From assembly GCA_047600535.1 (NCBI GenBank), contig JASGKR010000001.1, positions 2,719,638 through 2,783,637 of the forward strand: a stretch of DNA of 64,000 nucleotides, given 5' to 3'. The translations under genes and the position numbers were made by a program. Origin of the DNA: Phycisphaerales bacterium. Its GTDB lineage: Bacteria > Planctomycetota > Phycisphaerae > Phycisphaerales > UBA1924. Below are positions 4,233-49,107 of the stretch, piece after piece. Within the stretch, counting starts at the first letter, position 1. The number at the start of each line of letters is the position of its first letter. Under the pieces are notes generated by a model that searched no databases, was not told where the DNA came from, and was given only the letters and a program-made list of their open reading frames with translations.

Positions 4233-4937
4233 GTCCTCGACGATCCCGGCCTCAACCTCTGCAAAGCGACCTTTGCCCTTCTTACCACAGGCCGCCCCAC
4301 GGACGCAGATCACGTCCGCACCAGCCGCCCACAGCTCGGGCAACTGTTCCTTGGTGATCGAACCCGCCAGCCACGCTTCCTTTCCCTCGTCGTGCATGGC
4401 CTTGCACCACTTGGCGATCGCCTTCGTCTTGTGGTAGTCCAGGAGCCCGCGACCGATGCCTTTCTCAAACGTGTCGACAAGTACGCCGTCTGCTTTCGTC
4501 TTCACAGCCAATTTGATCGAGTCTTTGAGAGGCTTGAAGAAACGGTCCATTCCGTCGTCCACGAAGACGGCGGGGAAGAGCTTCTTTTTCGGGAACCAGT
4601 GCCGAACCGTCCGCACGATCTTTTCGCCCTGATAGATCGCTGCTTCTAAGGGCAACTCCGCAAGCCCGAACTTGATCAGATCGGCGCCAGCGATCGCGAC
4701 GCCGAGCGCCGCCTGGCATGCATTGGCCCGAGAGTGCTGGATCTCGCCGATGTTTGTCGAGATCTGGACCTTTGGGTACTTAGCTCTCACCTTCGCGCAG
4801 ACTTCCGCGATGTTGAGCGGGTAGGGCGTACCGAGGGCGGAGGCCGGGTATTCGACATCTGCGATCATCGCCCCACCTTCGGCGCAGGCGAGGGCCTCTA
4901 CTGGACCGCGAACGCTTACGAGAAGTCGCTGTTTCAT
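4212..4937 (-). CDS. MfnB/DUF556-like class-I aldolase-type TIM-barrel protein, (5-formylfuran-3-yl)methyl phosphate synthase family
   Basis: Motifs present are LLVSVRG...GGAMIADVEYP, GADLIKFGL, VLVDTFEKGIGRGLLDY, and WLAGSI...ADVICVRGAACG, which together resemble MfnB. Length is ~241 aa from MKQRLL. Confidence 0.5.
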   Translation of the reverse strand: MKQRLLVSVRGPVEALACAEGGAMIADVEYPASALGTPYPLNIAEVCAKVRAKYPKVQISTNIGEIQHSRANACQAALGVAIAGADLIKFGLAELPLEAAIYQGEKIVRTVRHWFPKKKLFPAVFVDDGMDRFFKPLKDSIKLAVKTKADGVLVDTFEKGIGRGLLDYHKTKAIAKWCKAMHDEGKEAWLAGSITKEQLPELWAAGADVICVRGAACGKKGKGRFAEVEAGIVEDLVATIP

Positions 4938-6571
4938 TTCTTTTTCTTCTTTGTGACCTTCTTTGCCGCCTTCTTGGCCTTCGCGCCTTTCTTGCGCTCG
5001 ATGTGGCAGACCCGCACGTCGAAGAATTTCGCACGTAGCGCGGCGCATCCATCGTAAAGACTAAGCCGACTGAAAAACGGCAGATCATCCGGCAGCGTCT
5101 TCGTGGGCGCATCGGCGATCGCGTAGACGATCCGTAGCTGCCGGGTTGGCACGCCCGTACTGAAGTCCTTCCACGGTGCTTTCGACTTCCACTTTGCCGG
5201 GATCTTCGCCAGGACCGCATCACGGAACGGCTGCGACCCGGCAATAAGCTGGGCCGAGTTCTCCCCCTGCTTGATGAGCGCACTGAAGGTCTGGGAGCTC
5301 TTCCACGCCTTTACATGGATGAAATGACCATCCTCCGAAACGAGATCGCAGGCCTCTACGGCATTGCCATCGGCATCGACTCCCTTACGGTCTAGTGCAC
5401 AGAACCGGTCGGGCTGCTTCTTGGCGACACCGTCGTTGTACTTGCCTTCGCCCCCGCTTCCTGTCCATGGGGGTAGGTAGTTGGGGTCGCTCTCTATGTC
5501 GATGTCGATGAAGGCGGCCTTGCAGTCGTCGATGTACTGTTGATCCAGCCGGTACCACTTCCCGTCCTTTAGCGCATACGGCTTCCCGTTGTAGTGCGTC
5601 TGAAACGTCGCGAGGTGTGACAGCGGCTGCTCAACGACAACGGACCCTTTTTCGTGAAGGCCACGGACGTTTAGTTGGTCGAGCTTGAGAGAGGCCCCGT
5701 GAGCCGCCCTCGCCCCAGCGACAATCGCTTCGACGTCTAGGTCCTCTAGCGGCTCCCATTGGTCGTCGGTCCATGAAACCTCGAAACTGTGAACAGAGCG
5801 CCAATCCTCCGCCTCCGGCAGGAAGAGGCCGATCTCTTTGCACGAAACAGGCTTGAGCGCGGCAAGCAACTTGCCGTCAAGTGCCTGCGTTACCGTTGCG
5901 TCAACGACGCGCTCGTAGCGTTTGAGGGCGGCAAGTCTTGCCTTCGGTTTCTTCGCGATTGCCGCAACAAGGCCATCGCAGAGCAATTGCAGTTCCGTAA
6001 AAGGGATGATGCCGCCGATCATGCAGGAGGTCGCGCCCGTAATTCTCTTGCCGAGCGCGGGATCGTTGCTCTTTCCACCTAGCCGGTGCACGTGGTCTCG
6101 CGCTCGCTGAAGCGGAAACGTCGCTAAGTCGCCCGGCTTGCTCGCGATCTGGAGCTTGTGAAGACCGTCGAACCCGACCGCCTTCGACTCGATCTCCTTG
6201 ATCGTGTTTGCCTCCAGCAGACGGCAAGCGGCTTCGAGTCCGAAGTCCTCCTGCACGAAAGTCTTTTCCAAAGCCATGAAGCCTTGACCGTACGTCAAAG
6301 CGCAAACTCGCCCGGATGTGGTCTTGAGAATGACGACAAGTGAGTTCGAGCGGTTGAGGACTGTCTTTGGCTTGGGGATGGCGCAATGCGGGAGGACATA
6401 CTCCAGCCAAGAGGGGACAGTGGTTTTGTCGCTTTGAAAGTACGCCGTAACGGGGAACGTCACTCCGGTGACCGCGACCTGTGTATATCCGCCCTTACCC
6501 AAGCTCGACGGTGCCATCGCATCGTCGAGGTTCTTCACCGAGTCTTTGAACACGTAGATGGTGTACTTCAT
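4934..6571 (-). CDS. hypothetical 546-aa protein with poly-lysine C-terminal tail
   Basis: A long ORF runs from MKYTIYVFKD. The C-terminus is AKAKKAAKKVTKKKKK. A possible nuclease-like D..ED..IHVK motif lies near residue 420. The 4-nt overlap with the upstream gene suggests an operon. Confidence 0.5.
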   Translation of the reverse strand: MKYTIYVFKDSVKNLDDAMAPSSLGKGGYTQVAVTGVTFPVTAYFQSDKTTVPSWLEYVLPHCAIPKPKTVLNRSNSLVVILKTTSGRVCALTYGQGFMALEKTFVQEDFGLEAACRLLEANTIKEIESKAVGFDGLHKLQIASKPGDLATFPLQRARDHVHRLGGKSNDPALGKRITGATSCMIGGIIPFTELQLLCDGLVAAIAKKPKARLAALKRYERVVDATVTQALDGKLLAALKPVSCKEIGLFLPEAEDWRSVHSFEVSWTDDQWEPLEDLDVEAIVAGARAAHGASLKLDQLNVRGLHEKGSVVVEQPLSHLATFQTHYNGKPYALKDGKWYRLDQQYIDDCKAAFIDIDIESDPNYLPPWTGSGGEGKYNDGVAKKQPDRFCALDRKGVDADGNAVEACDLVSEDGHFIHVKAWKSSQTFSALIKQGENSAQLIAGSQPFRDAVLAKIPAKWKSKAPWKDFSTGVPTRQLRIVYAIADAPTKTLPDDLPFFSRLSLYDGCAALRAKFFDVRVCHIERKKGAKAKKAAKKVTKKKKK

Positions 6572-6680
6572 GGGGTGCTGCCTTGAATACATTCCGAACC
6601 TACGACTGGGAGCAGGCCGGCCGTGACCGCACAACACTAAACCTTGCCGCGGCCGATTGCTTCACAAAACGCAAAACTAT

Positions 6681-35880: not shown

Positions 35881-36047
35881 CCGTGGCTTGGACGCCGCCA
35901 GGCTCGGCTTTGCGAGCCTGGCGCGTTGATCGCCCGCTGCAGTAACAGCAACAACCAAGCACTTTCCGCACGCTCACTCACGATTCACTGGCCGTGCGAA
36001 CCCGCCTTCGCCGCCGGTCTGAACACCGCAATCGAATACCTACACAC

Positions 36048-36992
36048 ATGACCACTCACGCCAACGACACCTCTTCCCCCACCGACAACCTCGATCGCCG
36101 CTTCCTACTGGGCGGACTCGCCGGCGCCGCGGGTATCGCCGCGCTCGCCGCCATGACGCGCCCCGCCTCCGCCGGCCCGCTCAACCCGCCCGCGGGTCCG
36201 ATCGCGGGAACCAGCCACACGCTCGACGAGATCTACAACAAGATCCCCGCCTCAGGCACTGGCGCAGGCCGCATCCCCCTCGTCGGCGGCAACCAGCCGA
36301 TCACGATCACCCAATCCGGCTCATACATCCTCACCGGCAACCTCGCCAATACCGGCAGTAACCCTCTCGCCGTCTTCGGCGCCAACATCGACATCGACCT
36401 CAACGGCTACTCCGTCTCTGGCGAACTCGAACTCTCCGCGATCGTGGTTCAGGGCCGCAACATCCGCATCCGCAACGGCATCATCCGCGAGTCCTACTAC
36501 GGCGTCGGCCTCACCGGCATCTCCGGCGTCGTGCTCGAGGACCTCATCATCGATCGCTGCCGCTTCGCCGGCATCGCCGCCAACGGCGGCACGATGCAGT
36601 CCATCAACATCCGTCGCTGCAACGTTTTCGATACCGGCGCCATCTCCCTGCCCACCGACCCGCCCTCGGGAAGCTACCGCGGCATCTACCTCAACGGTTC
36701 CGGCCACACTGTCACCGACTGCACCGTCCAGCGCATCATCCCGCCCGTCGGCGCCGCCTTCCGCGGCATCGAACTCACTGGTTCCGGCCACGTCGTCGCA
36801 CGCTGCATGGTCTCCAGCAACGCCGCTCTTGCAGGTATCGGCATCCTCTGCAGCGGCGGCACCTACCGCGATAACACCGTCGTCAACTTCACCACGCCCT
36901 ACAGCGGCGCCAGACAACGGCGGCGGCAACGCCTGACCGCAATGTCGCCCAGCGGCGATAACGCCCGCAACGCCGCCGATCCCAGGCTGTGA
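36048..36992 (+). CDS. Tat-signal beta-helix protein, paralog D. A C-terminal frameshift is likely, with the true stop near 36936.
   Basis: The N-terminus is MTTHANDTSSPTDNLDRRFLLGGLAGAAGIAALAAMTRPASAGPLNPPAGPIAGTSHTLDEIYNKIP. The family end motif YRDNTVVNFTTPYSG continues as DNGGGNA-stop in the +1 frame. Confidence 0.6.
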   Translation: MTTHANDTSSPTDNLDRRFLLGGLAGAAGIAALAAMTRPASAGPLNPPAGPIAGTSHTLDEIYNKIPASGTGAGRIPLVGGNQPITITQSGSYILTGNLANTGSNPLAVFGANIDIDLNGYSVSGELELSAIVVQGRNIRIRNGIIRESYYGVGLTGISGVVLEDLIIDRCRFAGIAANGGTMQSINIRRCNVFDTGAISLPTDPPSGSYRGIYLNGSGHTVTDCTVQRIIPPVGAAFRGIELTGSGHVVARCMVSSNAALAGIGILCSGGTYRDNTVVNFTTPYSGARQRRRQRLTAMSPSGDNARNAADPRL

Positions 36993-37073
36993 GCACGGCC
37001 GCGCAGGCTTATCCGACCTGCCGAGGGTCCGCAACAAGCTTGTACCTAGGCGATTTGCCCGTACACTGAGGGC

Positions 37074-38384
37074 ATGACCAACGACCTCGATCGTCGGTTC
37101 CTTCTGGGGGGCCTCGCAGGCGCAGCCGGTATTTCTGCGCTCGCGGCAATGGCAAAGGGAGCCGGCCCCCTCAACCCGCCCGCCGGAGCCGTCGCTTCCA
37201 CCGCCAAACCACTGGCCGATCTCGAGCCCCGCACTGCGATCAACGCCGCAAACACCCCCGGCGACGCCACCGCTGCGTTCATCATCAGCCAGCCCGGAAG
37301 TTACTACCTCACCGCCAACACGCCGGTTCCGCCCGGCGGCCAGGACACCATCCGCATCACCGCCAACGGCGGCACGGTGATCATCGACCTTAACGGCTTC
37401 ACGATCGCAAGCGCCAACAACGCCGTCCGCATCGCCGCCGCCGCCACTTCCGACGTCACCGTCCAGAACGGCGTCATCGTCAACTGCAATAACGCCGTCA
37501 CCAGCGCCGCAGTTGTCGCTCTGAACGCGCGCCTCCTCGTGTCGAACGTCCGATTCTCCAACTGCCTGGCGTGCATCTCCACGCAGTCGCCTGTCGAGGT
37601 TCGTAATTGCTCGCTCAATAACTCGTCGGGCTTGGGCACCCCCGTCGGCATCAACGGCGGCGCTCGCAGCCTCGTCGAATCCTGCCTGGTCGCCACGCCC
37701 GGCTCCAACAACATCATGCTGGGCGCCCAATCGATCGTCCGCAACTGCATCGTCAACGGCTCAAGCGGCTACTCCGTCGACGTCGGCGGCGGCTCGTTCG
37801 TCGACTCGTGCACGCTCAGCAACGGCAACACCGGCATCCGCATCGGCCAGGTGAGTGGAGGCCCCGGCGGCGCCGTGCGCAACTGCACGCTCTCAGCCTT
37901 CGCCATCGCCGGCATCAACGCCGTCGGCTCGACGATCGAAGGAAACACCATCATCACTCCCCAGACCGGCACGCCCCGCGGCATCGAGTCACAGGGCAAC
38001 TGCGACATCGTCGGCAACCGCATCGACGGCTCGGCCGGCGCCGGAGTCGGCATCCGCCTCTACAGCGGCCGCAACACCGTCCGCGCCAACGGCGTGAGCG
38101 GATTCAGCGGCACAAACGGCATCGGCATCTCGATCTTCCCCACCGCCGGCACCGGCAACGCGGGCAACAAGATCGTCGACAACGAGCTCGTCAGCAACTG
38201 GCTCCACATCGGCGCCAACGCGTTCTACAACTTCATCGCCCGCAACACCATGTCCTTCGTCGGCGCGGGCGGCAACTTCAACAACGCCGGCAATAACGCC
38301 TACGGCCCCTTCGTCCTCTGCAACAACACCGACTTGTCGACCGTCGCAGGCACCACCCACCCGCACGCCAACCTCGTCTACTGA
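37074..38384 (+). CDS. Tat-signal beta-helix protein, paralog E (full length, 436 aa)
   Basis: The N-terminus is MTNDLDRRFLLGGLAGAAGISALAAMAKGAGPLNPPAGAVASTAKPLADLEPRTAINAANTPGDATAAFIISQPGSYYLTAN...IIDLNGFTIASAN. Many N/G/S/T-rich beta-helix rungs follow. Confidence 0.7.
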   Translation: MTNDLDRRFLLGGLAGAAGISALAAMAKGAGPLNPPAGAVASTAKPLADLEPRTAINAANTPGDATAAFIISQPGSYYLTANTPVPPGGQDTIRITANGGTVIIDLNGFTIASANNAVRIAAAATSDVTVQNGVIVNCNNAVTSAAVVALNARLLVSNVRFSNCLACISTQSPVEVRNCSLNNSSGLGTPVGINGGARSLVESCLVATPGSNNIMLGAQSIVRNCIVNGSSGYSVDVGGGSFVDSCTLSNGNTGIRIGQVSGGPGGAVRNCTLSAFAIAGINAVGSTIEGNTIITPQTGTPRGIESQGNCDIVGNRIDGSAGAGVGIRLYSGRNTVRANGVSGFSGTNGIGISIFPTAGTGNAGNKIVDNELVSNWLHIGANAFYNFIARNTMSFVGAGGNFNNAGNNAYGPFVLCNNTDLSTVAGTTHPHANLVY

Positions 38385-38486
38385 GGCTCGAGCCGACCGC
38401 CATCGTTCACCGAGAGAATGTGCCTAGAGCACACCGCTCGGAAGCAAAGGGCTGGTCATCCCGTGGTTTGTCTGTAGACTGCCCAA

Positions 38487-39656
38487 ATGACCAACGACCT
38501 CGACCGTCGCTTCCTCCTCGGCGGCCTCGCCGGCGCTGCTGGCGTCTCCGCCCTTGCTGCGATGACCAAAGCCGGCCCGCTGAACCCTCCCGCCGGCGCC
38601 CTTGTCTCAACCGGCAAGACGCTCACCGACGTCGAGCCGCGCACCGCCGTCAACGCCCAGAACACGCCGCCAGTCGGCAACTACCTCTTTTCGCTCCCAA
38701 CCGCGGGCTCGTACTACCTCACCGGCAACATCTCCGTACCGGCAAACCGCACCGCGATCCTCATGCCCGAGGGGGCCACGCTCGACCTCAACGGCTTCAC
38801 CATCGCCGGCTCCGGCGCCGCTTCCAACGGCGTAGAGGCCCGCAACGCCTGCACCGTCCGCAACGGCTCGATCAATAACGTCGGCAGCGCGGTTCTCGTC
38901 GGCGTCGCTCCAAGCCTCTCCGTCACCGTCGAAGACCTGCGCGTCACCGGCTTCCTGTCACGCGGCATCGATATCGGCGGCCCCTCGGTCGTGCGCCGCT
39001 GCACGGTCAGCGGCCAGGGAATCACCGCGATCGAGCTCCAAGGCGACCACGGCGTCGTCGAAGACTGCGTCGTCAGCAATCTCGTCGCCGGCGGCGGCGG
39101 TGCGATTTACCTCAACTCCTACAGCATCGCCCGCCGCTGCCACGTCAGCCGCTGCACCGTCGGCATCCGCCTCGGCTTCGGCTCCGTGGCCGACGAGTGC
39201 GTCGCCGTCACCTGCGGCCACACCGGCTTCCAGGCCGGCCAGCGCGCCGTCGTGCAGCGTTGCTCGGCGATCAATATCACCGTCGGCGCGGCAGGCAACC
39301 CCGGCGTCGGCATCGACCTCACCGACGGCGCCGAGGCCGTCGGCTGCTCCACCCTCAGCTGCTACACCGGCATCCGAGGCTCGACCGGCGCCCGCATTAT
39401 CGAGTGCACCGCCGACGCCTGCGCGTCCGCTGCCGTTCGCCTCACCGGTCCGGGCAACACAATCGACTCCTGCCGGCTGAACCGCAGCAGCACCGGTGTC
39501 GACATGACCAATGTCGGCGGTAACTTCGTTCAGAAGTGCGTCCTGATGGGCAACGGCACCGCGTTCGCCGTCAACGTCGGCGGCAATTGGTACCCCAACG
39601 TCACGCTGGGCGCCACCAACTCCGCTACCAACCCCCTCGCAAGCGTCGTCGGCTGA
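38487..39656 (+). CDS. Tat-signal beta-helix protein, paralog F (389 aa)
   Basis: The 5' coding DNA is near-identical to paralogs E and G (atgaccaacgacctcgaYcgtcg...). The protein has the same N-module and a beta-helix body. Confidence 0.7.
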   Translation: MTNDLDRRFLLGGLAGAAGVSALAAMTKAGPLNPPAGALVSTGKTLTDVEPRTAVNAQNTPPVGNYLFSLPTAGSYYLTGNISVPANRTAILMPEGATLDLNGFTIAGSGAASNGVEARNACTVRNGSINNVGSAVLVGVAPSLSVTVEDLRVTGFLSRGIDIGGPSVVRRCTVSGQGITAIELQGDHGVVEDCVVSNLVAGGGGAIYLNSYSIARRCHVSRCTVGIRLGFGSVADECVAVTCGHTGFQAGQRAVVQRCSAINITVGAAGNPGVGIDLTDGAEAVGCSTLSCYTGIRGSTGARIIECTADACASAAVRLTGPGNTIDSCRLNRSSTGVDMTNVGGNFVQKCVLMGNGTAFAVNVGGNWYPNVTLGATNSATNPLASVVG

Positions 39657-39695
39657 ACGACTGGCCTCAGGCCCAATGCGCAGTATCCTGTCGCC

Positions 39696-40748
39696 ATGAC
39701 CAACGACCTCGATCGTCGCTTTCTCCTCGGCGGCCTCGCCGGCGCTGCCGGCGTCTCCGCCCTCGCCGCAATGACCAGCCGCGCACACGCGGGCCCGCTC
39801 AACCCGCCCGCCGGCGCCGTCGCCGCCACCGGCAAAACGCTCCCCGAAATCGAGCCGCGCACCCCGATCACCGACGCCAACACCCCGGGCACGGCCAACG
39901 TCCTCTTCCGCATCACCCAGCCGGGCTCGTACTACCTGACCGGCAACATTCTGGGCTTTCCCGGCAAGAGCGGCGTGCTCATCGCCGCCGACAACGTCAC
40001 CCTCGACCTCAACGGCTTCGCGCTCCTGGGCGTGCCCGGCAGCGGCGACGGCATCGCCGGCAACGACGTCTCCAACGTAACCGTGCTCAACGGCGTCTGC
40101 AAGGGCTGGGGCGCCACGGGCGTGTCGTTCTACGGCTCCGCCGTGCAGGGAATCCGCATCCACGGCGTCACCGCGGCCAACAACGTCAACGGCATCTATG
40201 TAGACCGCCTGGCCGAGATCAGCGGGTGCATCGCGCTTAACAACACAGTCACCGGGATCGAAGCCGGCAACAGCTCCGTAGTCACCGGCTGCACCTGCTG
40301 CGGCAACGCCAATGGCATCCGCGTGGGAAACAACGCCTGGGTGGAGGGCAACACCGTCGCCGGCGCCGCCGCCTGGGCAGGCGAGGGGACCGGCCCAGGC
40401 GCGGAGGGCATCCGCGCACGCATCGCCAGCACGATCGTCGGCAACAACGTTCGCTCCTTCGCCATCGGCTACCGCCAGGCCGCCGCCGTCTCCGGAGAGT
40501 TCGGTCTCTGCCGCATCGAGAACAACCAGTGCCTCTCCTGCAACACCGCCTACAAGATTGAGGGAACGTCCAACATGCTCCGCAGCAACACCAGCGCACT
40601 GGCCGCCGCGGCCCACTTCAACATCGCCGCGAACAACATGGCAAAGGTCGTCGTCGCCACCATGAACGGCGCGGCCTTCACCAACACCGGCGGCACATCA
40701 ATCCTTCCCACCGGCGCAGACACAAACACAAACCTCATCCTGGCATAA
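39696..40748 (+). CDS. Tat-signal beta-helix protein, paralog G (350 aa)
   Basis: The N-terminus is MTNDLDRRFLLGGLAGAAGVSALAAMTSRAHAGPLNPPAGAVAATGKTLPEIEPRTPITDANTPG...SYYLTGNI...VTLDLNGFALLG. Confidence 0.7.
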   Translation: MTNDLDRRFLLGGLAGAAGVSALAAMTSRAHAGPLNPPAGAVAATGKTLPEIEPRTPITDANTPGTANVLFRITQPGSYYLTGNILGFPGKSGVLIAADNVTLDLNGFALLGVPGSGDGIAGNDVSNVTVLNGVCKGWGATGVSFYGSAVQGIRIHGVTAANNVNGIYVDRLAEISGCIALNNTVTGIEAGNSSVVTGCTCCGNANGIRVGNNAWVEGNTVAGAAAWAGEGTGPGAEGIRARIASTIVGNNVRSFAIGYRQAAAVSGEFGLCRIENNQCLSCNTAYKIEGTSNMLRSNTSALAAAAHFNIAANNMAKVVVATMNGAAFTNTGGTSILPTGADTNTNLILA

Positions 40749-40785: not shown

Positions 40786-40842
40786 CCTCAATTTGGCCAT
40801 TTAGCCATTTAGCCATTTAGCCATTTAGCCATTTGCCATTTG
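40786..40842. repeat. octanucleotide microsatellite (agccattt) of about 6 units
   Basis: ttggccatttagccatttagccatttagccatttagccatttgccatttggccattt lies between convergent genes. Confidence 0.85.
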
Positions 40843-40851
40843 GCCATTTCG

Positions 40852-41751
40852 CTAAGCCCCCCTCACCGCTCCCGCCAACGCCGCAGCAACCAGCGGCCCC
40901 AGCAACGGCCCAAGACTCAGAATCTTGTCCGACTTCTGCAAGTTGTGTCGCGCACACAGCAGTTTCACATTCTCCACCGTAATCGACGACCCACCCTTGG
41001 AGAACGGCACGTCGTGATCAAAGTGCAGGTTGTCCATCGCGCCGCACTGCACGCACTTCCCCTGATCACGAATAAAGACCGCCTGCTTCACCGCCGTCGG
41101 AATCTGCCGACTGATCGACAGCTCACGCTCCTCCTCCCGCGTCGTCACACCCGGCGTCGCCGTCGGCCGCAGAAAGAACCGAAACACCTGCCGCGTCTTC
41201 CCCCCACTCACCCGGCCTTTGCCCGTTGGCACATCCTTGATCACCGCATCCACCAACTCGTGCCGACCGCGATCGCACCACACCCCGTCGATGATCTTCT
41301 CATACACCTGCACGACCTCAGCCGCACCCTCCCCTGCCTTAAACCCCTCCGCCGCGGCAAAGAACTTGCCGTTATCCGTCAACTTCCCCGACGCCAGCCG
41401 CATCGGCTGATCCACCTTCTTCGCATCCTTCACCACGCCCCGCGGCCACTCCGACACCTTCCGCGCCCGGTCGTGCCCCTCATACTCAAGCATCCCCGCG
41501 TGCTCACCCTCATCGTGCCACTGGTCCTGATACGGAGCCCCCTTGCGCACAGACATCAAGATGACCGAGTACCCCGCCGCCCCACCCCGCACATTGAAGT
41601 TCATCCCCCGCTGCAGGCTCGTCTCCTCACGAACGCACATCTCGGCATGGGAGAGGATTTCGCGGTAGCGCGCGGGCATTGACCGCAGAATATCGCCAGG
41701 CGGCTTGAGTGTCTCGAGTGGAGCCCGCACCGAAGGGGGTAAATGCAGCAC
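40852..41751 (-). CDS. HNH endonuclease-domain protein with uncharacterised N-terminal domain. An alternative start is at 41679.
   Basis: The C-terminal motif is CVQCGAMDNLHFDHDVPFSKGGSSITVENVKLLCARHNLQKSDK, which gives C-x2-C...H-x-D-H...N...C-x2-H-N. The N-terminal domain (GYSVILMSVRKGAPYQDQWHDEG...LEYEGHD) is unknown and may be a modified-base reader. Confidence 0.6.
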   Translation of the reverse strand: MLHLPPSVRAPLETLKPPGDILRSMPARYREILSHAEMCVREETSLQRGMNFNVRGGAAGYSVILMSVRKGAPYQDQWHDEGEHAGMLEYEGHDRARKVSEWPRGVVKDAKKVDQPMRLASGKLTDNGKFFAAAEGFKAGEGAAEVVQVYEKIIDGVWCDRGRHELVDAVIKDVPTGKGRVSGGKTRQVFRFFLRPTATPGVTTREEERELSISRQIPTAVKQAVFIRDQGKCVQCGAMDNLHFDHDVPFSKGGSSITVENVKLLCARHNLQKSDKILSLGPLLGPLVAAALAGAVRGA

Positions 41752-41820
41752 CGTTCATCTCAGAGCGACTGATCGGTGGCACGGGAGCCGGTGCCACACC
41801 CCCGGACCGTCTTCCAAGAA

Positions 41821-43092
41821 TTAGTCTCCGCCGTCAGGCTTGTCCCGATCCCAAGCCTCCGGATTAAAGGTCGGAGAAATAGTCGGTAGCAGTTCAAGAA
41901 ATCTGTCAAAGCGAAAACCAGTTGGCGTGTATTGGGATTCGACCTCAGAAAAGATATGACGCAACATGCCAACGTCAGGCAAGTGGTAGTCCAAATAGTT
42001 AGCAATAACCGCAAACGGAAAAAGAAATTGTTCCCAGTCGGGCAAAGAATCGCTATTTGTGCCTATCAATCCGAGAAGATACTGCGTCAACTCGCACTCG
42101 TACATCAGGTACCATATCCCGTCGCTTTTGACGGCCTTTACGGGTGAATCGCCCTCAACAGGAATCGCACGAGCGGCCAGCCTAATCCGATCTGCATCGC
42201 CGCTGCGAAGTGGACGCCGTGAGTAGCCGAACTCAAAGACGTCACGATCGGTTTCCTTGGTGGAGTACCAGCTGGCCCGGTCGCCAATCAGGCCAAAGCG
42301 GAGGTCCAGTCGTCGTTGCATTACGTCAATACGCACGAGGTCAACTTCGCGTTTCGCGAAAATCATCTGGCGCAGTGCGTGGGGCACACTGGTAACGATG
42401 GGATCAGTCGGCAGCTTCAAGGCGTCGCCGAGAACCCCGATAATACTAGAAAGCGAAAGGCTGCCAACAGTCTCACGAATCAGAGACTCCGCGTGATAAA
42501 GCAGGAGCGAGTTTACGGTCCAGAAGTGCTTTAGTGACTGGATTTTCTCAACGGTCATCGTCGTTCGCGCGCCATCGGCTTCGACCGGCACAATAGCTAG
42601 CCTGCTGACTTGTCCCTCGAGTAGTTCATCACTTACGGCGCCTTCGATCATCAGAGCCGACATCAGAAACGAAGCCTCCTGAGAGGCCCAAGTAGAAGAA
42701 AAACCCCGCTCCTTCTGCATAGCCTCATGCTCGCTCTTAACGTGATCGCAGTACGCCTTGTATATTGCTTCCAACATTTTTTCACGATCGGCGCCAGCTT
42801 CGATGGACGAGCGAGCGACATTAGTCCGCGGCGCACGCGACCCGCACGCATTTGCCATAGCGCAGATAGCTTCGCTTGTGCGATAGCCGGGTGCTGTGAA
42901 CTCTACGCGCACCCCTTCGATGCAAGTGCCGACTACCCATGTGTGCGGCTTGACTCGTGACGACATCCGAATGAACGACCACTCCTTAAAATGGTCGGAC
43001 CACCGGACTGGAAAGGCGACCTGTACGCCATTCTCCTCTGATTCCACAATCTTTATCTTGCTGTGCTCGGACAAGCCAAGTTCCGCAACCAT
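41821..43092 (-). CDS. hypothetical protein, downstream partner of the HD-GHKL gene in the lower-GC islet
   Basis: The protein is ~424 aa. GC is visibly lower than the flanks. The gene lies 69 nt downstream of the 43161-44849 gene stop. No motifs were recognised. Confidence 0.45.
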   Translation of the reverse strand: MVAELGLSEHSKIKIVESEENGVQVAFPVRWSDHFKEWSFIRMSSRVKPHTWVVGTCIEGVRVEFTAPGYRTSEAICAMANACGSRAPRTNVARSSIEAGADREKMLEAIYKAYCDHVKSEHEAMQKERGFSSTWASQEASFLMSALMIEGAVSDELLEGQVSRLAIVPVEADGARTTMTVEKIQSLKHFWTVNSLLLYHAESLIRETVGSLSLSSIIGVLGDALKLPTDPIVTSVPHALRQMIFAKREVDLVRIDVMQRRLDLRFGLIGDRASWYSTKETDRDVFEFGYSRRPLRSGDADRIRLAARAIPVEGDSPVKAVKSDGIWYLMYECELTQYLLGLIGTNSDSLPDWEQFLFPFAVIANYLDYHLPDVGMLRHIFSEVESQYTPTGFRFDRFLELLPTISPTFNPEAWDRDKPDGGD

Positions 43093-43160
43093 GCTGCGTA
43101 CTGCGTCTCCTAGCGTATTTTGACCTACAGCGACTGGTTCTGTGCCAACCACCTGCACCG

Positions 43161-44849
43161 TTAGGCGCACCCGGGGACGACAAACCACTTGCGAAGGATG
43201 TTAAGAGGTCGCGTCAGCTTAGCGCTCGCCCGGAGGTGCATGCGTACCACCGTGCCATGTGGCACGATTCCCAGTTCGCTCGGGACGCCATGCTTTGGAA
43301 GCAGTTTAATCAAGTAGCGCCCATGAACTGATCGCAGGGATAATTGACGAGCATCTTCCTCTTGGGCTGAAGAAGTGATAATCTCGACATTGTCCGCGAT
43401 CATGAAAGCTGACAACAGGCCAATACCAAAACGACTAATTGGGTGGAATCCCGGGTACGTTTCTTTGAATTTTCGATCTTGGTACTTTGAGGACCCCACT
43501 TTTAGTAGGTGTTCCTGTATCACCTGCTGGGTCATTCCAGTCCCGTCGTCGCGGACCTCGATAACATTGGAGTCGCTATCCCAGACAACCTGAACCTTTC
43601 CTGAACTAACTTGCTTCCCGTCCACGGCGTCAATATGGCGCTGCAGGCGGACGGCGTCTATAGCATTTTGTGTAATTTCACGAAGTACGACATCGGTGTC
43701 GTTGTACAGCGTGTGGCCGATCAGCAAGTCTAGTATCTTCGTTTGATCAATTGAGAACGCAAACGATTCTTTGATGAACCCGTCTGTCTCGATGTTTGTA
43801 TCGTCGATTTGCCGCCACGGAAACTCGAATCGGCTTCCATGCCGCTTTTGGGAATCCGCGGCCCACGCGGCTGACTGCTTTAACTGGTTTTCCGCGTACT
43901 TCAAATAAGATGTTAGCCCGAAAAAGCCGTTGGGATTGCTGAAGTAAGCGAACACCTCGATTGTGTCTCGCGGCAGGCTGTCATCAATTGCCCCTTCGGA
44001 ATTTTTAGCGAACTTGGTTCTCACCCGTTTAACCGCGTGCTGCTTCGCCCATTCTTCCTGACTAATTGGGTCAGTTGGTGCAATGACTCTGAAAAGAATA
44101 CTGGGCGTTCTATCTTGCGTAATATGGAGGAGATCGGCAGATCGGAGCAGAATCGCAGCGTACTGGACATTTGCCGTTGCGGTATCGCTGTTGCCGTATG
44201 GCTGCGATACCTTGTACTTCGTGACATTATCCAAGTCGTTTAAATGGTGGCTCTCGCACACAAGCGCGAGGTCCTTGCGAAACTGCGGATCTAACGAGCT
44301 AAGTAATTTGTCAACTTCTGAGATTGCGGCATGCGAAACCCCCAAATGTTCGGCAGGCCTTCCAAGAATCCAGTTTTTTACACGCACGGCATGATTCTGA
44401 CGCACGAACTCTTGGTATAGATACCTTTCAAGTTCCTCGGGTGGAAGCTTTGATACCCGTGATTTATAATCAATCCCATCCTGGTCGGCAAAGAGCACTT
44501 TGTCCTTAAAAGCGGGAAACAGCGATTCTCCTCTGCGCTGGTATTCTGCTTTGGTTACCAGCATGCCAAGATCGTGGAAGTACACGGCTAGCGTGATCAT
44601 GAGCCAATCCGTGGGGCTCATGAGTTTTACGGTTGAGCTGGGAACAAGTTGCTCTACGAGTTGCAGCATTGCGTCCACATGCGAGACGTCATGCTTTGTG
44701 TATTCGTCAAATATACCATCGCGACCGATAAGTCCTGTGAGCTGTTCGATTACTCGCTTAATGTGGAGGAGTTTTAGGCCGCTGAACGAGGAGAGCTCTT
44801 CGGCCGGAACCGCCCAAAGCTCGACGTTAGTGGATAGCTGCTGGACCAA
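43161..44849 (-). CDS. HD-domain plus GHKL (HATPase_c) ATPase fusion protein
   Basis: The N-terminus has H..HD motifs (KHDVSHVDAML ... AVYFHDLGM). The C-terminus has a Bergerat fold: N-box REITQNAIDA, G1 IEVRDDGTGMT and G2 SRFGIGLLSAFMIAD. GC is lower than the flanks. Confidence 0.6.
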   Translation of the reverse strand: MVQQLSTNVELWAVPAEELSSFSGLKLLHIKRVIEQLTGLIGRDGIFDEYTKHDVSHVDAMLQLVEQLVPSSTVKLMSPTDWLMITLAVYFHDLGMLVTKAEYQRRGESLFPAFKDKVLFADQDGIDYKSRVSKLPPEELERYLYQEFVRQNHAVRVKNWILGRPAEHLGVSHAAISEVDKLLSSLDPQFRKDLALVCESHHLNDLDNVTKYKVSQPYGNSDTATANVQYAAILLRSADLLHITQDRTPSILFRVIAPTDPISQEEWAKQHAVKRVRTKFAKNSEGAIDDSLPRDTIEVFAYFSNPNGFFGLTSYLKYAENQLKQSAAWAADSQKRHGSRFEFPWRQIDDTNIETDGFIKESFAFSIDQTKILDLLIGHTLYNDTDVVLREITQNAIDAVRLQRHIDAVDGKQVSSGKVQVVWDSDSNVIEVRDDGTGMTQQVIQEHLLKVGSSKYQDRKFKETYPGFHPISRFGIGLLSAFMIADNVEIITSSAQEEDARQLSLRSVHGRYLIKLLPKHGVPSELGIVPHGTVVRMHLRASAKLTRPLNILRKWFVVPGCA

Positions 44850-45018
44850 GGTAAGCTCCTAGCGGCAGTTTACTTATTTGCCGCACACCTTTTAGGACGA
44901 TTTGTTCCGGCAAGCCGGCGGGGGAAGCACCGCCCAACCCTTTCCACTCCCCGTGCCGCCGCGCCGGCCGCTCTGGGACGGTCGGTGCTGCCTTCATGCT
45001 CGCGATTTAGACTATCCA

Positions 45019-45594
45019 ATGCCCCAAACCCTCACGGTCCTGCTTATTGTGATCGGCCTCCTCGTCCTCATGGGCGTCGCCCTGGTTGCCGCCGCCAAGC
45101 TTGGCCTCCTCAAACCCGGTGAATCCGGCGAGAAGTCCCGGCCTTACCGCCTCTGTGACCGCCTCCTCTCCGACGCCGAGCTCAAGTTCCACACCGCCCT
45201 CACCGCCGCGATGCCGATCCTCTGTCAGCGAGCCAACCGGCAAGATGCCCCACTCCTCTTCGCGAAAGTCCGGCTGGGTGACGTGCTCACACCCGATCGC
45301 AACAAGACTCCCGAGCGCAGCGGCAGTGACGGCTGGCAGGCCGCCCGCAACAAGATCGACCGCAAACACGTCGATTTCCTGCTCTGCAATCCCGCGACCA
45401 CGAAGCCAGTGCTGGTGATCGAGCTCGACGACAAGTCGCACCAGCGGCCCGACCGACAGGAACGCGACAAGTTCCTCAACGACGCGTGCAAAACCGCGGG
45501 GCTGCCCATCTGGCGCGTCGCGTGCCTCCCGCCGAACATCAATTACGACCCGCGCCAACTAGCCGCCGAGATGGCCAAGGCGCTTGGCGTCTGA
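45019..45594 (+). CDS. membrane-anchored DUF2726-like (nuclease-fold) protein
   Basis: The N-terminal TM segment is MPQTLTVLLIVIGLLVLMGVALVAAA. The core is KHVDFLLCNPATTKPVLVIELDDKSHQRPDRQERDKFLNDACKTAGLPIWRV, which fits the DUF2726 pattern. Confidence 0.5.
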   Translation: MPQTLTVLLIVIGLLVLMGVALVAAAKLGLLKPGESGEKSRPYRLCDRLLSDAELKFHTALTAAMPILCQRANRQDAPLLFAKVRLGDVLTPDRNKTPERSGSDGWQAARNKIDRKHVDFLLCNPATTKPVLVIELDDKSHQRPDRQERDKFLNDACKTAGLPIWRVACLPPNINYDPRQLAAEMAKALGV

Positions 45595-45693
45595 TGCCTT
45601 AAAGGGGGCAGTCGGGGCCCTCCCCGACACTGCATCGCGCATTTCGCCTGCGATTTCCAAGTACACTCCGCCTGCACAAACCCCGCCGAGTCC

Positions 45694-45768
45694 CAAGGCG
45701 CAGCGCAGCCTCAGTAGCGCGTCTGGTTCGGGACCAGAAGGTCGGAGGTTCAAATCCTCCCACCCTGG
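45694..45768 (+). pseudogene. degenerate tRNA-Pro(CGG)-like element
   Basis: The anticodon arm is tctgg-TTCGGGA-ccaga and the T arm is ggagg-TTCAAAT-cctcc. A D arm gcgc/gcgc is present but the D loop lacks GG and U8 is absent. The acceptor stems pair at only 5 of 7 positions. Confidence 0.3.
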
Positions 45769-45838
45769 CTGCAGCGCAACCACACAGCGCGTTTGACTGG
45801 GGATCAAAAGGTCGTGGGTTCAAATCCCGCCACCACGA
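45765..45838 (+). pseudogene. degenerate tRNA-Pro(GGG)-like element, tandem to the previous one
   Basis: The anticodon arm is tttga-CTGGGGA-tcaaa. The variable loop is aggtc. The T arm is gtggg-TTCAAAT-cccgc. The acceptor pairs at 4 of 7 positions. The architecture is the same as the neighbouring element. Confidence 0.3.
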
Positions 45839-46980
45839 GTTGGCGGGACGAATTTCCACCCCCATCCCCTAAGGACCACCACACCCCCCCCCCTAAACGG
45901 AGGTATTCACTCGGTATCCACCAAATACCCTTGCAAACACCAAACTTTTCGTGTATAATTCGATCTGAAATCAAAACCACCACCCACCCACACCAAAGCT
46001 CCGGCAAAACCCCGAGAGCCACCACACGCAAGGGAAAAGGGAAGCGGCAGGCGGACGACCGAGCCGTCAGACCAAAGGGGGACCCAACGTGCAAGCCCAA
46101 CCCACCACCGACACCACCAGCCCGCTCGCGCCACCGTCAGCCAACACCCCCACCACAACTACCCCGCCCCCACAGCGCTGCACTCCCACGCTCATCGATA
46201 GCGCCCAGGCCGACGCCATCGAAGCCCTCCAGGCGATCCTCAAAGAGACCGCCCCGCTCGACATCTTCGACGACCTCCCCGAGCGCACGCGTGCGAGCGA
46301 TCAGACCGACGACACAAACGAGTCAACCGACGCCCCGCGCCGCCACTCACCCCGCGGCCGCGCACTCCGCCTCTCCATCCGTCTCCGAGCCGCCACCGCC
46401 CTCCTGCGAATCAGGGTCGCAACTCCTTCTCCCAGCTTCTTGCTGGGAGAAGGTGCCCCTCGGTCCTCCGAGGGGCGGATGAGGGTGCCTCGTTCTTCTG
46501 ACTCCACCAATTGCCCCACGCGCACGCGCTCAGCCTCTCCAAATCCGCAATCCGAATTCCACAATCCGCAATCGCTCTCGCCCGACACCAACGACGAGCC
46601 CGCGCCCAAACCGCGCTCTCGCTCCGCGCGCGAAGTCGCCCGCGACGAAGCCGCGGCCAAAAAAGCCAAAGCCGATCGCACCCTCGCGATGATCGAGGCC
46701 GGCAACCAGCAGGCGTATCAAAACCTCCTCGAGATCCGACGCCAAGCCGACCTCCGCATAGCCGCGGAAGCAGCCGCAAACTCCGCCGCGGCAGCAGCAA
46801 CCTCGATCACAACCAACAACGCCGACAGCACGACGCCCAGCGCACACCCGCCGCCCATCCACGAACCCTCAGGGAGCGCAGCACCAAGCCCAAGCCACCA
46901 AAGGCCCTCGCTCAACGCCGCGCTCCCAATTCCCTAAACGGCTGCACGCAAGCGTCAACTGCCGACGCGCCCGTCCAACA

Positions 46981-49107
46981 TCACGGACAACCGAAGTAGT
47001 ACAAGTCGAAGAAGAGGATCTCGTCGTTAGTGCTGACGATGCCGTCAGGCCCAGGCGTTGCACCAGGCCCAGCGATGTCCGCCCGGGCGTCGCCCGTCAG
47101 CAGGTACCCCATGAAGACGGCCATGTCGTTGTTATCCACAACACAGTCGTGCCCGGGCACGCCGCCCTGCACGCCGACATCGATCGGACAGAACGGCGCC
47201 GTGGTCAACCCCAGGCTCGCCAGCGTGAAGGTGATCTTCTTGCGGATCAGCGGCTCGCCTGTGTCGAGGTAGGACCCTTCCATCACTGTGGTTTCCGGAC
47301 GGACCCGTGCCACGGCGGTGTAGATGGTAATCGGCGTCGTTGACGTAATGCCCGGCACCAGTTTGGCAAACTCGCCGCCATCGAACCTGAAGGTCATGTC
47401 GGTCGTGGCGGGACTTGTGGCCACCGAAGTGCTGACGCTGGTCGTCGGCGCCGCTGCAGCCCTCATCCAGAGCCGCTGGCCGTTGACCACCATGAGGGCT
47501 GACCCTTTCACTGTGGACGGGGCGGGTACGGTCGCGGTAGGCGAAACGCCGATGCGCAACCGCAGACTCAGGTCTGTAAACACTCCACTGCACGTCGTCC
47601 CTGCGAGCACCGTCTGGCTGTCAAACACCATGCTGGAATCCACTCGATCGGTAAAGGTGTTGTCGTACTCCTCTGGGTAGAAGAGCTTCCAGTTACCAAA
47701 AGACGTGTCGCCGGTTCCTCCGGCCACAAAGCACTTGAGCATCACCAGCCCGCAGAAGAACTGCCGGACCTTGCCCACCGGATTACCCGAAGGACAGATG
47801 TCATAGTTCGTGTAGTCTGTGAGCGAGCAGAGCGTACGTTGCTCTGATGCCCACACATGCGGAGTATCGGATGGCGATAGTGAGACTGGCCCGTCAGTAG
47901 AAAAGTCGCTTGCGGACCTGGTCGTGCCGATCCACGTCATCCCAAACGACGGGTCAAAGTACGCGGGGCGGGCCGGTATCCCAGCCAACGTGTCAGCCGG
48001 AAGGTTGATACCCGCAATCGTGTGGTTCAGGAATGTCGTGTACTGCGCCGGCTGAGCCGTGGAGTAGGTTCCGGCCGGTGGATTTGCGGCGAGCGTCGCG
48101 TTCCACTCCCACGTATTCCCCTCGCGCCCGTCAAACATCTGCAGGTAATTCATCGCCCCGCTGGAGTCGCGGATCTGGCTGTTGATGAGCAGGTTGTCAC
48201 CCCACCCCGGTTCGATGTAGAACGTCGTCCCGTCGCCCACCCCAGCCAAGCGAACCAGGCTCAGCCACCCGCGCGCCGATTGAGCGCAAACGGTGCGACG
48301 CGCCGTCGTGCTGAGCACTGTGCTGTCGCTGCCGTTCCCGATCAACAGCCGCTGCGCGATCTGCACCGGAGTTGCGTTGCCTCCTGGGCCGTATATCCAT
48401 GCGGGTCGGCCCGGCGATGGCGTAGCGACGTACTCCGTAGACATCGCACGCATGCCGGCCATCACGGCCGCTCCAACTTCCTCCGGCTTGCTGGCGCCCT
48501 TAATCCAATCCGCCAGCCTCAACAGCATGGTGCGGTTGGGCAAAGCCGCCGAGTTGAGAGTGAAAGCCGGGCTGTCGTGGCCCGATGCCGCCGGGGCCCT
48601 GTACGTCAGAGCCACTTCGTTGATCGTGACAGTGTTTGTCATCACCGCGCCTGTGCTGTCCACCACGGAGAGCTCGAGTTTGTACAGCCCGCACTTGGTG
48701 GGTAGCGACGTAATCGGAAAGATCATGCCGGCGCTCGCCGATGCGTCAGGCGGGGTGGTCACCTGCAACGCGGCATCGGTCCACGTGTGCCGAAGCTTGT
48801 AAGGCCCAGTCCCTCCGATGCCGGGAACATTGAGCTCCAACTTCAACCCGGGCACGCCTTCTACCGCCATGGCTGTGTGCAAGTCATCCCACACGATGTA
48901 CTGCAGCGGTGTGCCGCCGTTGCGGTCGTAGACGTACACCGGGTTGGTCGCGGGCGTCGGCCATGCACCGCGATCACTCAGATAAATCGGATTTGTCTCC
49001 GTCGCCTTAATCCAGTCGATGTTCGCCTGCGCCAACGCGCGGCCGGAACAGGCGAGCAAGCCGCACACAGCGGCGGCTAAAACAGTCGAACGGGTGGCGG
49101 TGCGCAT
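46981..49107 (-). CDS. large secreted protein (708 aa) with duplicated C-terminal DNNDMAVF / STNDEILFFDLYYFGC dockerin-like module
   Basis: The signal peptide is MRTATRSTVLAAAVCGLLACSGRALA. The C-terminus is GVQGGVPGHDCVVDNNDMAVFMGYLLTGDARADIAGPGATPGPDGIVSTNDEILFFDLYYFGCP. Confidence 0.65.
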   Translation of the reverse strand: MRTATRSTVLAAAVCGLLACSGRALAQANIDWIKATETNPIYLSDRGAWPTPATNPVYVYDRNGGTPLQYIVWDDLHTAMAVEGVPGLKLELNVPGIGGTGPYKLRHTWTDAALQVTTPPDASASAGMIFPITSLPTKCGLYKLELSVVDSTGAVMTNTVTINEVALTYRAPAASGHDSPAFTLNSAALPNRTMLLRLADWIKGASKPEEVGAAVMAGMRAMSTEYVATPSPGRPAWIYGPGGNATPVQIAQRLLIGNGSDSTVLSTTARRTVCAQSARGWLSLVRLAGVGDGTTFYIEPGWGDNLLINSQIRDSSGAMNYLQMFDGREGNTWEWNATLAANPPAGTYSTAQPAQYTTFLNHTIAGINLPADTLAGIPARPAYFDPSFGMTWIGTTRSASDFSTDGPVSLSPSDTPHVWASEQRTLCSLTDYTNYDICPSGNPVGKVRQFFCGLVMLKCFVAGGTGDTSFGNWKLFYPEEYDNTFTDRVDSSMVFDSQTVLAGTTCSGVFTDLSLRLRIGVSPTATVPAPSTVKGSALMVVNGQRLWMRAAAAPTTSVSTSVATSPATTDMTFRFDGGEFAKLVPGITSTTPITIYTAVARVRPETTVMEGSYLDTGEPLIRKKITFTLASLGLTTAPFCPIDVGVQGGVPGHDCVVDNNDMAVFMGYLLTGDARADIAGPGATPGPDGIVSTNDEILFFDLYYFGCP

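Follow-up and report, generated by a model that had tools for sequence, protein, structure and literature searches.

A stretch of depressed guanine-plus-cytosine (GC) content lies in a 64,000-nucleotide (nt) piece of the genome of a Phycisphaerales bacterium (GenBank assembly GCA_047600535.1, contig JASGKR010000001.1, positions 2,719,638 to 2,783,637). It raises the question of what is encoded there, how far it extends and whether it came from elsewhere. The whole piece is called the window below, and positions are counted from its first letter. In an earlier reading made from the letters alone (the sequence-only reading), the stretch was taken for a horizontally acquired defence or signalling islet of four genes, with a two-gene HD-GHKL system at its centre, an HNH nuclease gene and a DUF2726 gene on its flanks and a tandem pair of tRNA-Pro-like elements as the remnant of an integration site. 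Our analysis leads to a different picture: the locus probably holds one foreign, frameshifted gene for an HD-CE/Hsp90-like ATPase, a candidate for a conflict function, between resident flanks.

When GC content was calculated in 500-nt segments, it amounted to 0.48–0.56 across approximately 41.75–45.0 kb, compared with 0.62–0.70 on either side, in agreement with the fall between about 41.8 and 44.9 kb described before. The 3-kb segment starting at 41801 is the GC minimum of the 64 kb (0.519), while segments outside the region have values of 0.649 ± 0.024 with a minimum of 0.574. At third codon positions (GC3), the minus-strand open reading frames (ORFs) at 41821–43188 and 43161–44849 reach 0.58 and 0.57, respectively, with a gene GC of 0.51–0.54. 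For the neighbours, GC3 is 0.80 in both the HNH and the DUF2726 gene, 0.88–0.89 in the beta-helix genes further upstream and 0.77 in the gene of a 708-amino-acid (aa) protein further downstream. The GC anomaly is confined to one gene on the minus strand, at 41821–44849, and does not cover a four-gene islet; the HNH and DUF2726 genes are native by GC and lie outside the low-GC region. The features of this gene that matter here are the following.

41821 to 44849, minus strand: HD-CE/Hsp90-like ATPase gene, about 1,009 codons after repair, with a one-base frameshift inside.
43161 to 43169, minus strand: frameshift site, read as TGC GCC TAA where the family consensus needs TGC GCC (C)TA ACG; one C is missing at 43164/43165.

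As assembled, the gene consists of a 562-aa ORF (43161–44849) and an overlapping 455-aa ORF (41821–43188), the two frames sharing 28 nt. In a BLASTP comparison with the best homologue (P0002, 948 aa), the 562-aa ORF aligns to residues 1–560 and the 455-aa ORF, from its residue 2, to residues 556–942. Homologues in a collection of 5.8 billion proteins are 940–985 aa long wherever the contig permits a full gene. With the 455-aa ORF as query, an exhaustive HMMER search across 1.84 billion representatives returned 360 proteins, 273 of them at E ≤ 1e-10; the full-length ones are all 1,011–1,069 aa long and are matched at about positions 550–1040. At the level of genomes, we compared 27 loci from a genome scan (Cyanobacteria, Actinomycetota, Bacteroidota and Saccharibacteria) and two that were fetched separately, 29 in all. 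The homologue in these loci is a single ORF of 1,008–1,277 aa, in most cases 1,014–1,047 aa by longest-ORF calls, and both window ORFs match the same homologue ORF, at positions 1–560 and about 550–1010. The exceptions are a 951-aa copy in locus L002 and a copy in a Saccharibacteria metagenome-assembled genome (locus L023). The latter is split differently: at 2154–5008 of its locus it is divided into 706 and 269 aa, at a position other than that in the window copy.

The junction itself locates the lesion. Its minus-strand sequence is TGC GCC TAA CGG; the first frame ends with KWFVVPGCA and the stop, and the other frame runs on as LTVQVVGTEPVAVGQ. The family consensus at this place is WIVxPxCxVxVxxDxxxPxxIGF, and the switch of frame must therefore sit between the Cys codon and CTA. 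Insertion of one C after GCC (43164/43165) yields an ORF of 1,009 aa with no further stop, and the repaired junction fits the consensus, the near-invariant Cys included. This ORF aligns in one segment that spans the junction to 29 of 29 homologues, for example with residues 5–1002 to locus L026. Thus a single polypeptide of the family length, about 1,010–1,050 aa, is obtained only once one C has been added, and the gene as assembled falls short of it. The family-invariant residues are all present in both halves (the HD His/Asp residues, GHKL motifs I–III and the R126 loop). Because the homologues are fused and one base repairs the frame, the supposed 424-aa partner, previously placed 69 nt downstream of the HD-GHKL gene, belongs to the HD-GHKL protein itself, as its C-terminal half in the other frame. 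The low-GC stretch is one gene, and the two-gene system is an artefact of the frameshift.

Other accounts of the two ORFs were weighed against this one. A genuine two-gene HD-GHKL system, made up of a 562-aa enzyme and a partner of 424/455 aa that is translated on its own, both within an islet of four genes integrated at tRNA-Pro, is very improbable. The assembly does show two ORFs, which the public annotation lists as two proteins (P0001, 562 aa; P0241, 423 aa), the Saccharibacteria homologue is also split, though elsewhere in the gene, and the tRNA-like elements are 845 nt away. However, all 27 full-length homologues of the genome scan are fused, a single base restores the frame, and the sole ATG start of the second ORF would cut off the first ~30 residues of a folded domain. 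As for the islet, the HNH and DUF2726 genes have native GC, the HNH gene is syntenic in relatives, and neither an integrase-family match nor an att repeat nor a further copy of the tRNA 3' end was seen nearby. Still further from likely, to the point of being nearly negligible, is programmed −1 ribosomal frameshifting that would join the two ORFs in vivo. The 28-nt overlap of the frames and a C/G-rich run, GTC CCC GGG, just upstream would suit it, but an X XXY YYZ heptamer is absent, slippage at CCC-GGG would skip the near-invariant Cys of the consensus, the switch is needed inside GCC right before the stop, where re-pairing is impossible, and no homologue requires such an event. It was rejected on these grounds, since there is no slippery heptamer and the switch point abuts the stop.

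The single broken gene itself can be read in two ways: the window copy is either inactivated, as a pseudogene, or intact in the organism and mis-assembled. If it is a pseudogene, it would be a recent one, because there is only one lesion and the conserved residues are all intact. The other option, in which the frameshift is purely an assembly or base-calling error and the organism has an intact, functional HD-Hsp90 gene, is a special case of the single-foreign-gene reading and is a real possibility, to which we give somewhat less than an even chance. It fits the single lesion and the presence of the invariant residues in both halves, the source is a 4.38-Mb contig of a metagenome-assembled genome, an assembly type where single-base indels arise, and the missing base falls within a short C run. 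This run is merely 2–3 bases long, though, and no typical long homopolymer, and the other window genes that were checked match Pfam models full-length and uninterrupted (4HFCP_synth at 1–223 of 228 positions, DUF6119 at 2–523 of 524, pantoate ligase and peptidase M28).

The domain composition of the protein was then derived from profile searches and fold comparison, as follows.

43878 to 44711, minus strand: HD-CE phosphohydrolase domain, residues 47–324 of the 562-aa ORF (Pfam PF24391, E 1.8e-55).
43221 to 43763, minus strand: Hsp90-type GHKL ATP-binding domain, residues 363–543, with the motifs REITQNAIDA (E..N..D), DDGTGM (DxGxG) and FGIGLLS (GxxGxG).
41821 to 43164, minus strand: C-terminal half, predicted by fold comparison to be an Hsp90 middle/GHKL transducer-like region followed by an alpha-helical part.

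The HD-CE match scores 188.9 bits against a cut-off of 27 and covers profile positions 1–262 of 263. All invariant HD residues are kept, namely H53/D54/H57, H92-D93 (FHDLGM), H153, H201 and D239/H242. The GHKL domain is matched by HATPase_c_3 (E 4.9e-11) and by the NCBIfam models HSP90 (E 7e-29) and HtpG (E 2e-25), in both cases over the first ~170 of ~600 positions, and in the Protein Data Bank (PDB) by the N domains of TRAP1, Hsp82 and HtpG at E ~1e-15. These matches bear out the fusion of an HD domain to a GHKL/Bergerat ATPase that had been recognized in the 562-aa ORF from its motifs. For the second half, an AlphaFold2 model built from 36 sequences has a mean predicted local distance difference test score of 87 and a predicted template modelling score of 0.86. 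The 50 best Foldseek matches of this model are all GHKL proteins, with TRAP1 first (E 2.8e-3, probability 0.90–0.98), followed by GyrB, ParE, Hsp90 and MORC3. When the family profile was aligned with an HtpG sequence by hhalign, the N domain alone was recovered (probability 98.7), and the middle and C-terminal regions gave no sequence-profile match to HtpG. The middle-domain assignment therefore comes from the fold comparison, and we take the second half, with moderate confidence, as the counterpart of the Hsp90 middle/transducer region. In sum, the predicted domain order is an HD-CE phosphohydrolase, an Hsp90-type GHKL ATP-binding domain, a middle/transducer-like region and a helical C-terminal region.

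The catalytic loop of Hsp90 carries the motif N-L-S-R-E-x-L-Q. An invariant motif, P..TNVARS.LE, is found in the C-terminal half of the family, with R126 of the 455-aa ORF at its centre (42808–42825), and its loop N-V-A-R-S-x-L-E may be the counterpart of the Hsp90 loop, which it resembles. If this reading of the loop is right, the 562-aa ORF alone would be an incomplete ATPase that lacks the arginine for ATP hydrolysis. Compared with Hsp90, HtpG and TRAP1, the family shares an ATP-binding domain with all Bergerat motifs, for which the best sequence matches are found among these proteins, and a next domain that best matches Hsp90 middle-domain structures. It differs in its ~330-aa N-terminal HD phosphohydrolase and in being rare, patchy and mobile, while Hsp90 is universal. 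Likewise, against the HtpG/HSP90 equivalog models NF003555 and NF010683 the whole protein scores 89.4 versus a cut-off of 371 and 100.8 versus 455, and only the first ~170 model positions are covered. The family is catalogued, as Pfam HD-CE plus an Hsp90-like ATPase, yet uncharacterised.

The next question is whether the gene is foreign and whether it arrived with its neighbours. The gene on its 3' side is native by GC:

40852 to 41679, minus strand: SRA-HNH protein, 275 aa, with an SRA-like domain at about 41155–41679, an HNH domain at about 40930–41112 and a hydrophobic C-terminal tail.

The HNH assignment of the sequence-only reading is supported by motif and fold, with a Pfam score of 21.2 just under the cut-off of 21.4. 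The N-terminal domain, which had been called novel, has an SRA fold. The protein is 57–83% identical across many Planctomycetota. In three relatives (L035, 83% identical; L036 and L037, 74%) it keeps the convergent beta-helix neighbour with a twin-arginine translocation (TAT) signal that is seen in the window. Its other neighbours there are NERD and HTH_73 genes in L035 (1848–2906) and a GmrSD_N gene in L036 and L037 (9620–11419 in L036). The HD-Hsp90 gene is absent beside SRA-HNH in all three, although these relatives are too distant for fine synteny. Given its native GC and its synteny in relatives that lack the HD-Hsp90 gene, SRA-HNH is a gene of the chromosomal backbone and not of an islet. 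The HD-Hsp90 gene, in turn, appears to have been acquired horizontally, on its own, because its composition is foreign, it is missing beside SRA-HNH in relatives, and its nearest homologue is merely 59% identical. These neighbourhoods suggest that the SRA-HNH gene marks a variable defence slot in Planctomycetota, which collects nuclease-type genes such as GmrSD, NERD and HD-Hsp90.

SRA-HNH itself is predicted to be a resident look-alike of type IV restriction enzymes. Like TagI and ScoMcrA, it has an SRA-fold domain of the kind that reads DNA modifications and an HNH motif, both predicted from fold and motif. Unlike them, it shows no detectable sequence similarity beyond matches in the HNH region, carries a hydrophobic C-terminal tail and is unusually well conserved. 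This tail, at 40852–40930, is a conserved Gly/Pro/Ala-rich hydrophobic segment (SLGPLLGPLVAAALAGAVRGA). In the AlphaFold model it forms a long helix of low confidence. It may anchor the protein in a membrane, and restriction enzymes do not usually have such an anchor. On the other side of the convergent stops, at 35994–40748 on the plus strand, lie four tandem right-handed beta-helix paralogues with a near-identical twin-arginine signal (MTNDLDRRFLLGGLAGAAG...). An 8-nt microsatellite, ATTTAGCC, is repeated 7.5 times at 40791–40849 (94% matches) and lies within the 103-nt gap between the stop of the last beta-helix gene (40748) and that of SRA-HNH (40852).

On the 5' side of the HD-Hsp90 gene, a divergent gene is followed by the two tRNA-like elements:

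45019 to 45594, plus strand: DUF2726 protein, 191 aa, with an N-terminal transmembrane helix (Pfam PF10881, E 3.1e-28), divergent from the HD-Hsp90 gene.
45694 to 45769, plus strand: tRNA-Pro(CGG)-like element 1, called by ARAGORN; 46.4 bits over the full Rfam model (gathering score 29).
45773 to 45838, plus strand: tRNA-Pro(GGG)-like element 2, 37.9 bits in Rfam at 45773–45830 (model positions 9–63); no ARAGORN call.

The DUF2726 assignment thus holds as it was made before. The metagenomic relatives of this protein reach no more than 48% identity and have no association with tRNA. Syntenic relatives were also sought on the tRNA side, but none was close enough, and accordingly neither an intact tRNA locus nor an empty insertion site was seen.

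Both tRNA-Pro-like elements exist as described, with intact anticodon and T arms and defective acceptor stems, though only the first is called by ARAGORN. For comparison, a tRNA-Asp gene in the window, used as a control, scores 70.6 bits in Rfam and has a seven-pair acceptor stem, U8, G18-G19 and A73. Element 1 forms a full cloverleaf but has A3.C70 and C6.A67 mismatches, which leave five of seven acceptor pairs, as well as C8, no G18-G19 and G73. In element 2 the D, anticodon and T arms are intact, position 8 is again C and the D loop has no G. It lacks a 5' acceptor strand of its own: positions 1–8 would overlap the end of element 1, and four of seven pairs form with the borrowed bases. Taken as tRNA-Pro genes, then, the pair is like them in that element 1 is called and passes the Rfam threshold and in the perfect anticodon and T arms of both, and unlike them in its low scores, in acceptor stems that are mismatched or missing, in C8 and in the lack of G18-G19. 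Tandem Repeats Finder gives a period of 70 nt with 1.9 copies and 78% matches, the copies being 80% identical over 49 nt. These 49-nt cores differ at ten places, two of them in the anticodon loop and eight in the anticodon and T stems, where pairing is kept in every case. Minimum-free-energy folding gave no cloverleaf and unremarkable z-scores, a test that carries little weight for tRNAs. Since the stem differences preserve pairing, the elements either go back to functional isoacceptor genes or remain under constraint. Together, the shared oddities (C8, no G18-G19) and the compensatory stems suggest that the odd features have a common origin and that the structure is still under constraint, as opposed to simply decaying.

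The pair had also been read as a classic integration-site remnant. It stands 845 nt from the foreign gene, with the native-GC DUF2726 gene in between. Among the ORFs scanned at 46.1–52.9 kb there is no integrase-family or other Pfam match, and upstream lie the beta-helix paralogues. The tRNA 3' segment has no copy in the window beyond the two tandem elements, and direct repeats flanking the low-GC gene do not rise above chance. With no integrase, no att-type repeat and the DUF2726 gene in between, the pair fails as evidence of integration. This sets the locus apart from tRNA-linked genomic islands, which it does not resemble in having an integrase or a distal direct repeat, nor in the placement of the foreign gene, which is not adjacent to the elements. 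The integration-site reading is unsupported, and the two tRNA-Pro-like elements are a degenerate tandem feature in their own right.

Some further observations concern the right flank and the rest of the window. The stretch 45850–47000 is skewed and rich in C and A, with an AT skew of up to 0.47 and a GC skew of about −0.3. A near-consensus sigma-70-like promoter, TTGCAA-17-TATAAT, is found at 45931–45959, and downstream of it, at 46089–46937, lies a 282-aa low-complexity ORF rich in Pro, Ala, Thr and Ser without a Pfam match. A weak ctRNA_pGA1 match at 46424–46486 scored 23.8 bits, below the gathering score of 45, and was treated as chance. The 708-aa secreted protein encoded at 46981–49107 on the minus strand is annotated at the source as a GC-type dockerin domain-anchored protein; at E ≤ 1e-10, the 5.8-billion-protein collection holds no homologue of it besides itself. 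Far to the left, at 4934–6637 on the minus strand, a full-length DUF6119 protein (E 3.4e-95) adjoins the 4-HFC-P synthase gene.

What the HD-Hsp90 protein may do was approached through its family. The family is rare, with about 270–360 clusters at 50% identity, and its spread is patchy: Cyanobacteria, Actinomycetota, Bacteroidota, Alphaproteobacteria, Myxococcota, Saccharibacteria, Firmicutes and one archaeon. Intact homologues occur in cultured Sphingomonas, Streptomyces and Dyadobacter strains; the one in Sphingomonas sp. Leaf28 (P0080) is accompanied by a SLATT_2 gene, and stand-alone copies occur in Dyadobacter and Streptomyces. In 8 of the 29 loci, a gene for a SLATT_2 two-transmembrane effector lies directly downstream, overlapping or within 24 nt, and in five Bacteroidota and Saccharibacteria loci a tyrosine integrase gene lies upstream, 91 nt to about 2.1 kb off. 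The window locus has no SLATT_2 gene: the next gene downstream is SRA-HNH, 69 nt away, and the ORFs scanned at 35.9–52.9 kb include no SLATT-family match. The 134 ORFs in the vicinity of the homologues include one HmaC, one SduA and one ZorD/DpdE-like gene, two AriA genes and several methyltransferase genes, and the Sphingomonas copy is adjoined by AbiTii and a resolvase. None of the 29 loci has an HNH or DUF2726 homologue near the HD-Hsp90 homologue, and a functional partnership of the HNH and DUF2726 genes with it was rejected for that reason. From these contexts a conflict role is plausible, and the family is a reasonable candidate defence gene. Of the horizontally acquired defence or signalling islet, therefore, the foreign HD-GHKL gene and a plausible link to defence are retained, with one gene in place of several.

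GHKL ATPases coupled to nucleases recur in bacterial and eukaryotic immunity, for example in MORC proteins. The BbrUII/HgiDII restriction enzymes, MzaB and MORC/paraMORC resemble the present family in that they follow the principle of coupling a GHKL ATPase with a hydrolase or nuclease and occur as mobile, sporadic genes. Partial matches to hidden Markov models of such systems were obtained for NCBIfam restrict_BbrUII (E 1.2e-16), PADLOC REase_II (E 4.5e-7) and MzaB (E 6e-4). In contrast to these systems, however, only the ATP-binding domain matches (60 versus a cut-off of 550, 18 versus 850), the place of the effector is taken by an HD domain and not by PD-(D/E)xK, Mrr or HNH, and there is no methyltransferase partner. 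The HD-CE region gives a weak match to positions 699–905 of the PADLOC RT_UG24 model (E 4.7e-8). UG24 reverse transcriptases are predicted to be defensive, and their C-terminal phosphohydrolase (COG3294) has been proposed as the effector (PMC9226505). The two have in common a related HD domain, situated in UG24 at the C-terminus; the present protein has no reverse transcriptase, and its HD domain is N-terminal and coupled to an ATPase.

The intact protein could work as an ATP-driven dimeric GHKL clamp or sensor that gates the N-terminal HD hydrolase. ATP-dependent dimerisation would be completed by the arginine of the middle-domain catalytic loop (TNVARS), after which the HD hydrolase would break down nucleic acid or nucleotides, either the invader's or those of the infected cell. 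The SLATT_2 membrane pore may serve as an optional second effector in the 8 of 29 loci that have it.

Several results weigh against a frameshifted foreign gene with a conflict function. The frameshift may be biological or have arisen in the assembly; the full-length Pfam matches of the other window genes count against general indel noise. A PDB profile search with the HD region returned no matches. PADLOC-DB v2.0.0 contains no full-length model and yields only partial matches, for the HD region (RT_UG24), the ATPase (REase_II) and the HNH region; the C-terminal half and DUF2726 have no match in it. Literature searches turned up no paper on the family or on a tie to defence; they yielded one relevant item, the mention of COG3294 as the C-terminal phosphohydrolase of UG24. 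Plasmids are nearly devoid of the family (two distant matches), phage records hold no full-length match, and about 16 of the 29 loci have neither a SLATT partner nor an integrase, many neighbours being housekeeping genes.

Two alternatives for the function were considered. The family might have nothing to do with defence and be a specialised chaperone or nucleotide-signalling enzyme, such as an Hsp90 paralogue with an HD domain that hydrolyses a second messenger, acquired for physiology; we regard this as unlikely, yet worth keeping in mind. The ATPase domain is closest to true Hsp90/HtpG/TRAP1, many homologue neighbourhoods are housekeeping, and HD domains commonly hydrolyse signalling nucleotides. 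SLATT domains have also been proposed to respond to nucleotide signals (PMC7159879). On the other hand, the spread is patchy, integrases are adjacent, the composition is foreign, defence genes lie near several loci, and the equivalog scores for HtpG and HSP90 are far under their cut-offs (89 versus 371 and 101 versus 455). In the second alternative, HD-CE/Hsp90-like proteins would make up an anti-phage or abortive-infection system not described before, alone or with SLATT_2, and, separately, the tRNA-like pair could be functional non-canonical tRNA-like RNAs instead of decayed genes; as a whole this proposal is rather doubtful. The Hsp90 ATPase would then sense infection, for instance by closing around a phage protein or nucleic acid as its 'client', and the sensor would switch on the HD hydrolase and, where present, the SLATT membrane pore. 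We favour a single frameshifted foreign gene of plausible conflict function.

For this locus, the analysis closes a false lead, in that the two-gene system is one broken gene and its two supposed islet partners are resident genes. The interest of the locus is moderate to low, and that of the family somewhat higher: it is rare and mobile, combines an HD hydrolase with a complete Hsp90-like ATPase, often has SLATT_2 beside it and is absent from a current defence catalogue. The intact homologues from cultured strains make a defence role easy to test. If the anti-phage proposal is true, this family would be the first to put a true Hsp90-class ATPase to immune use in bacteria.

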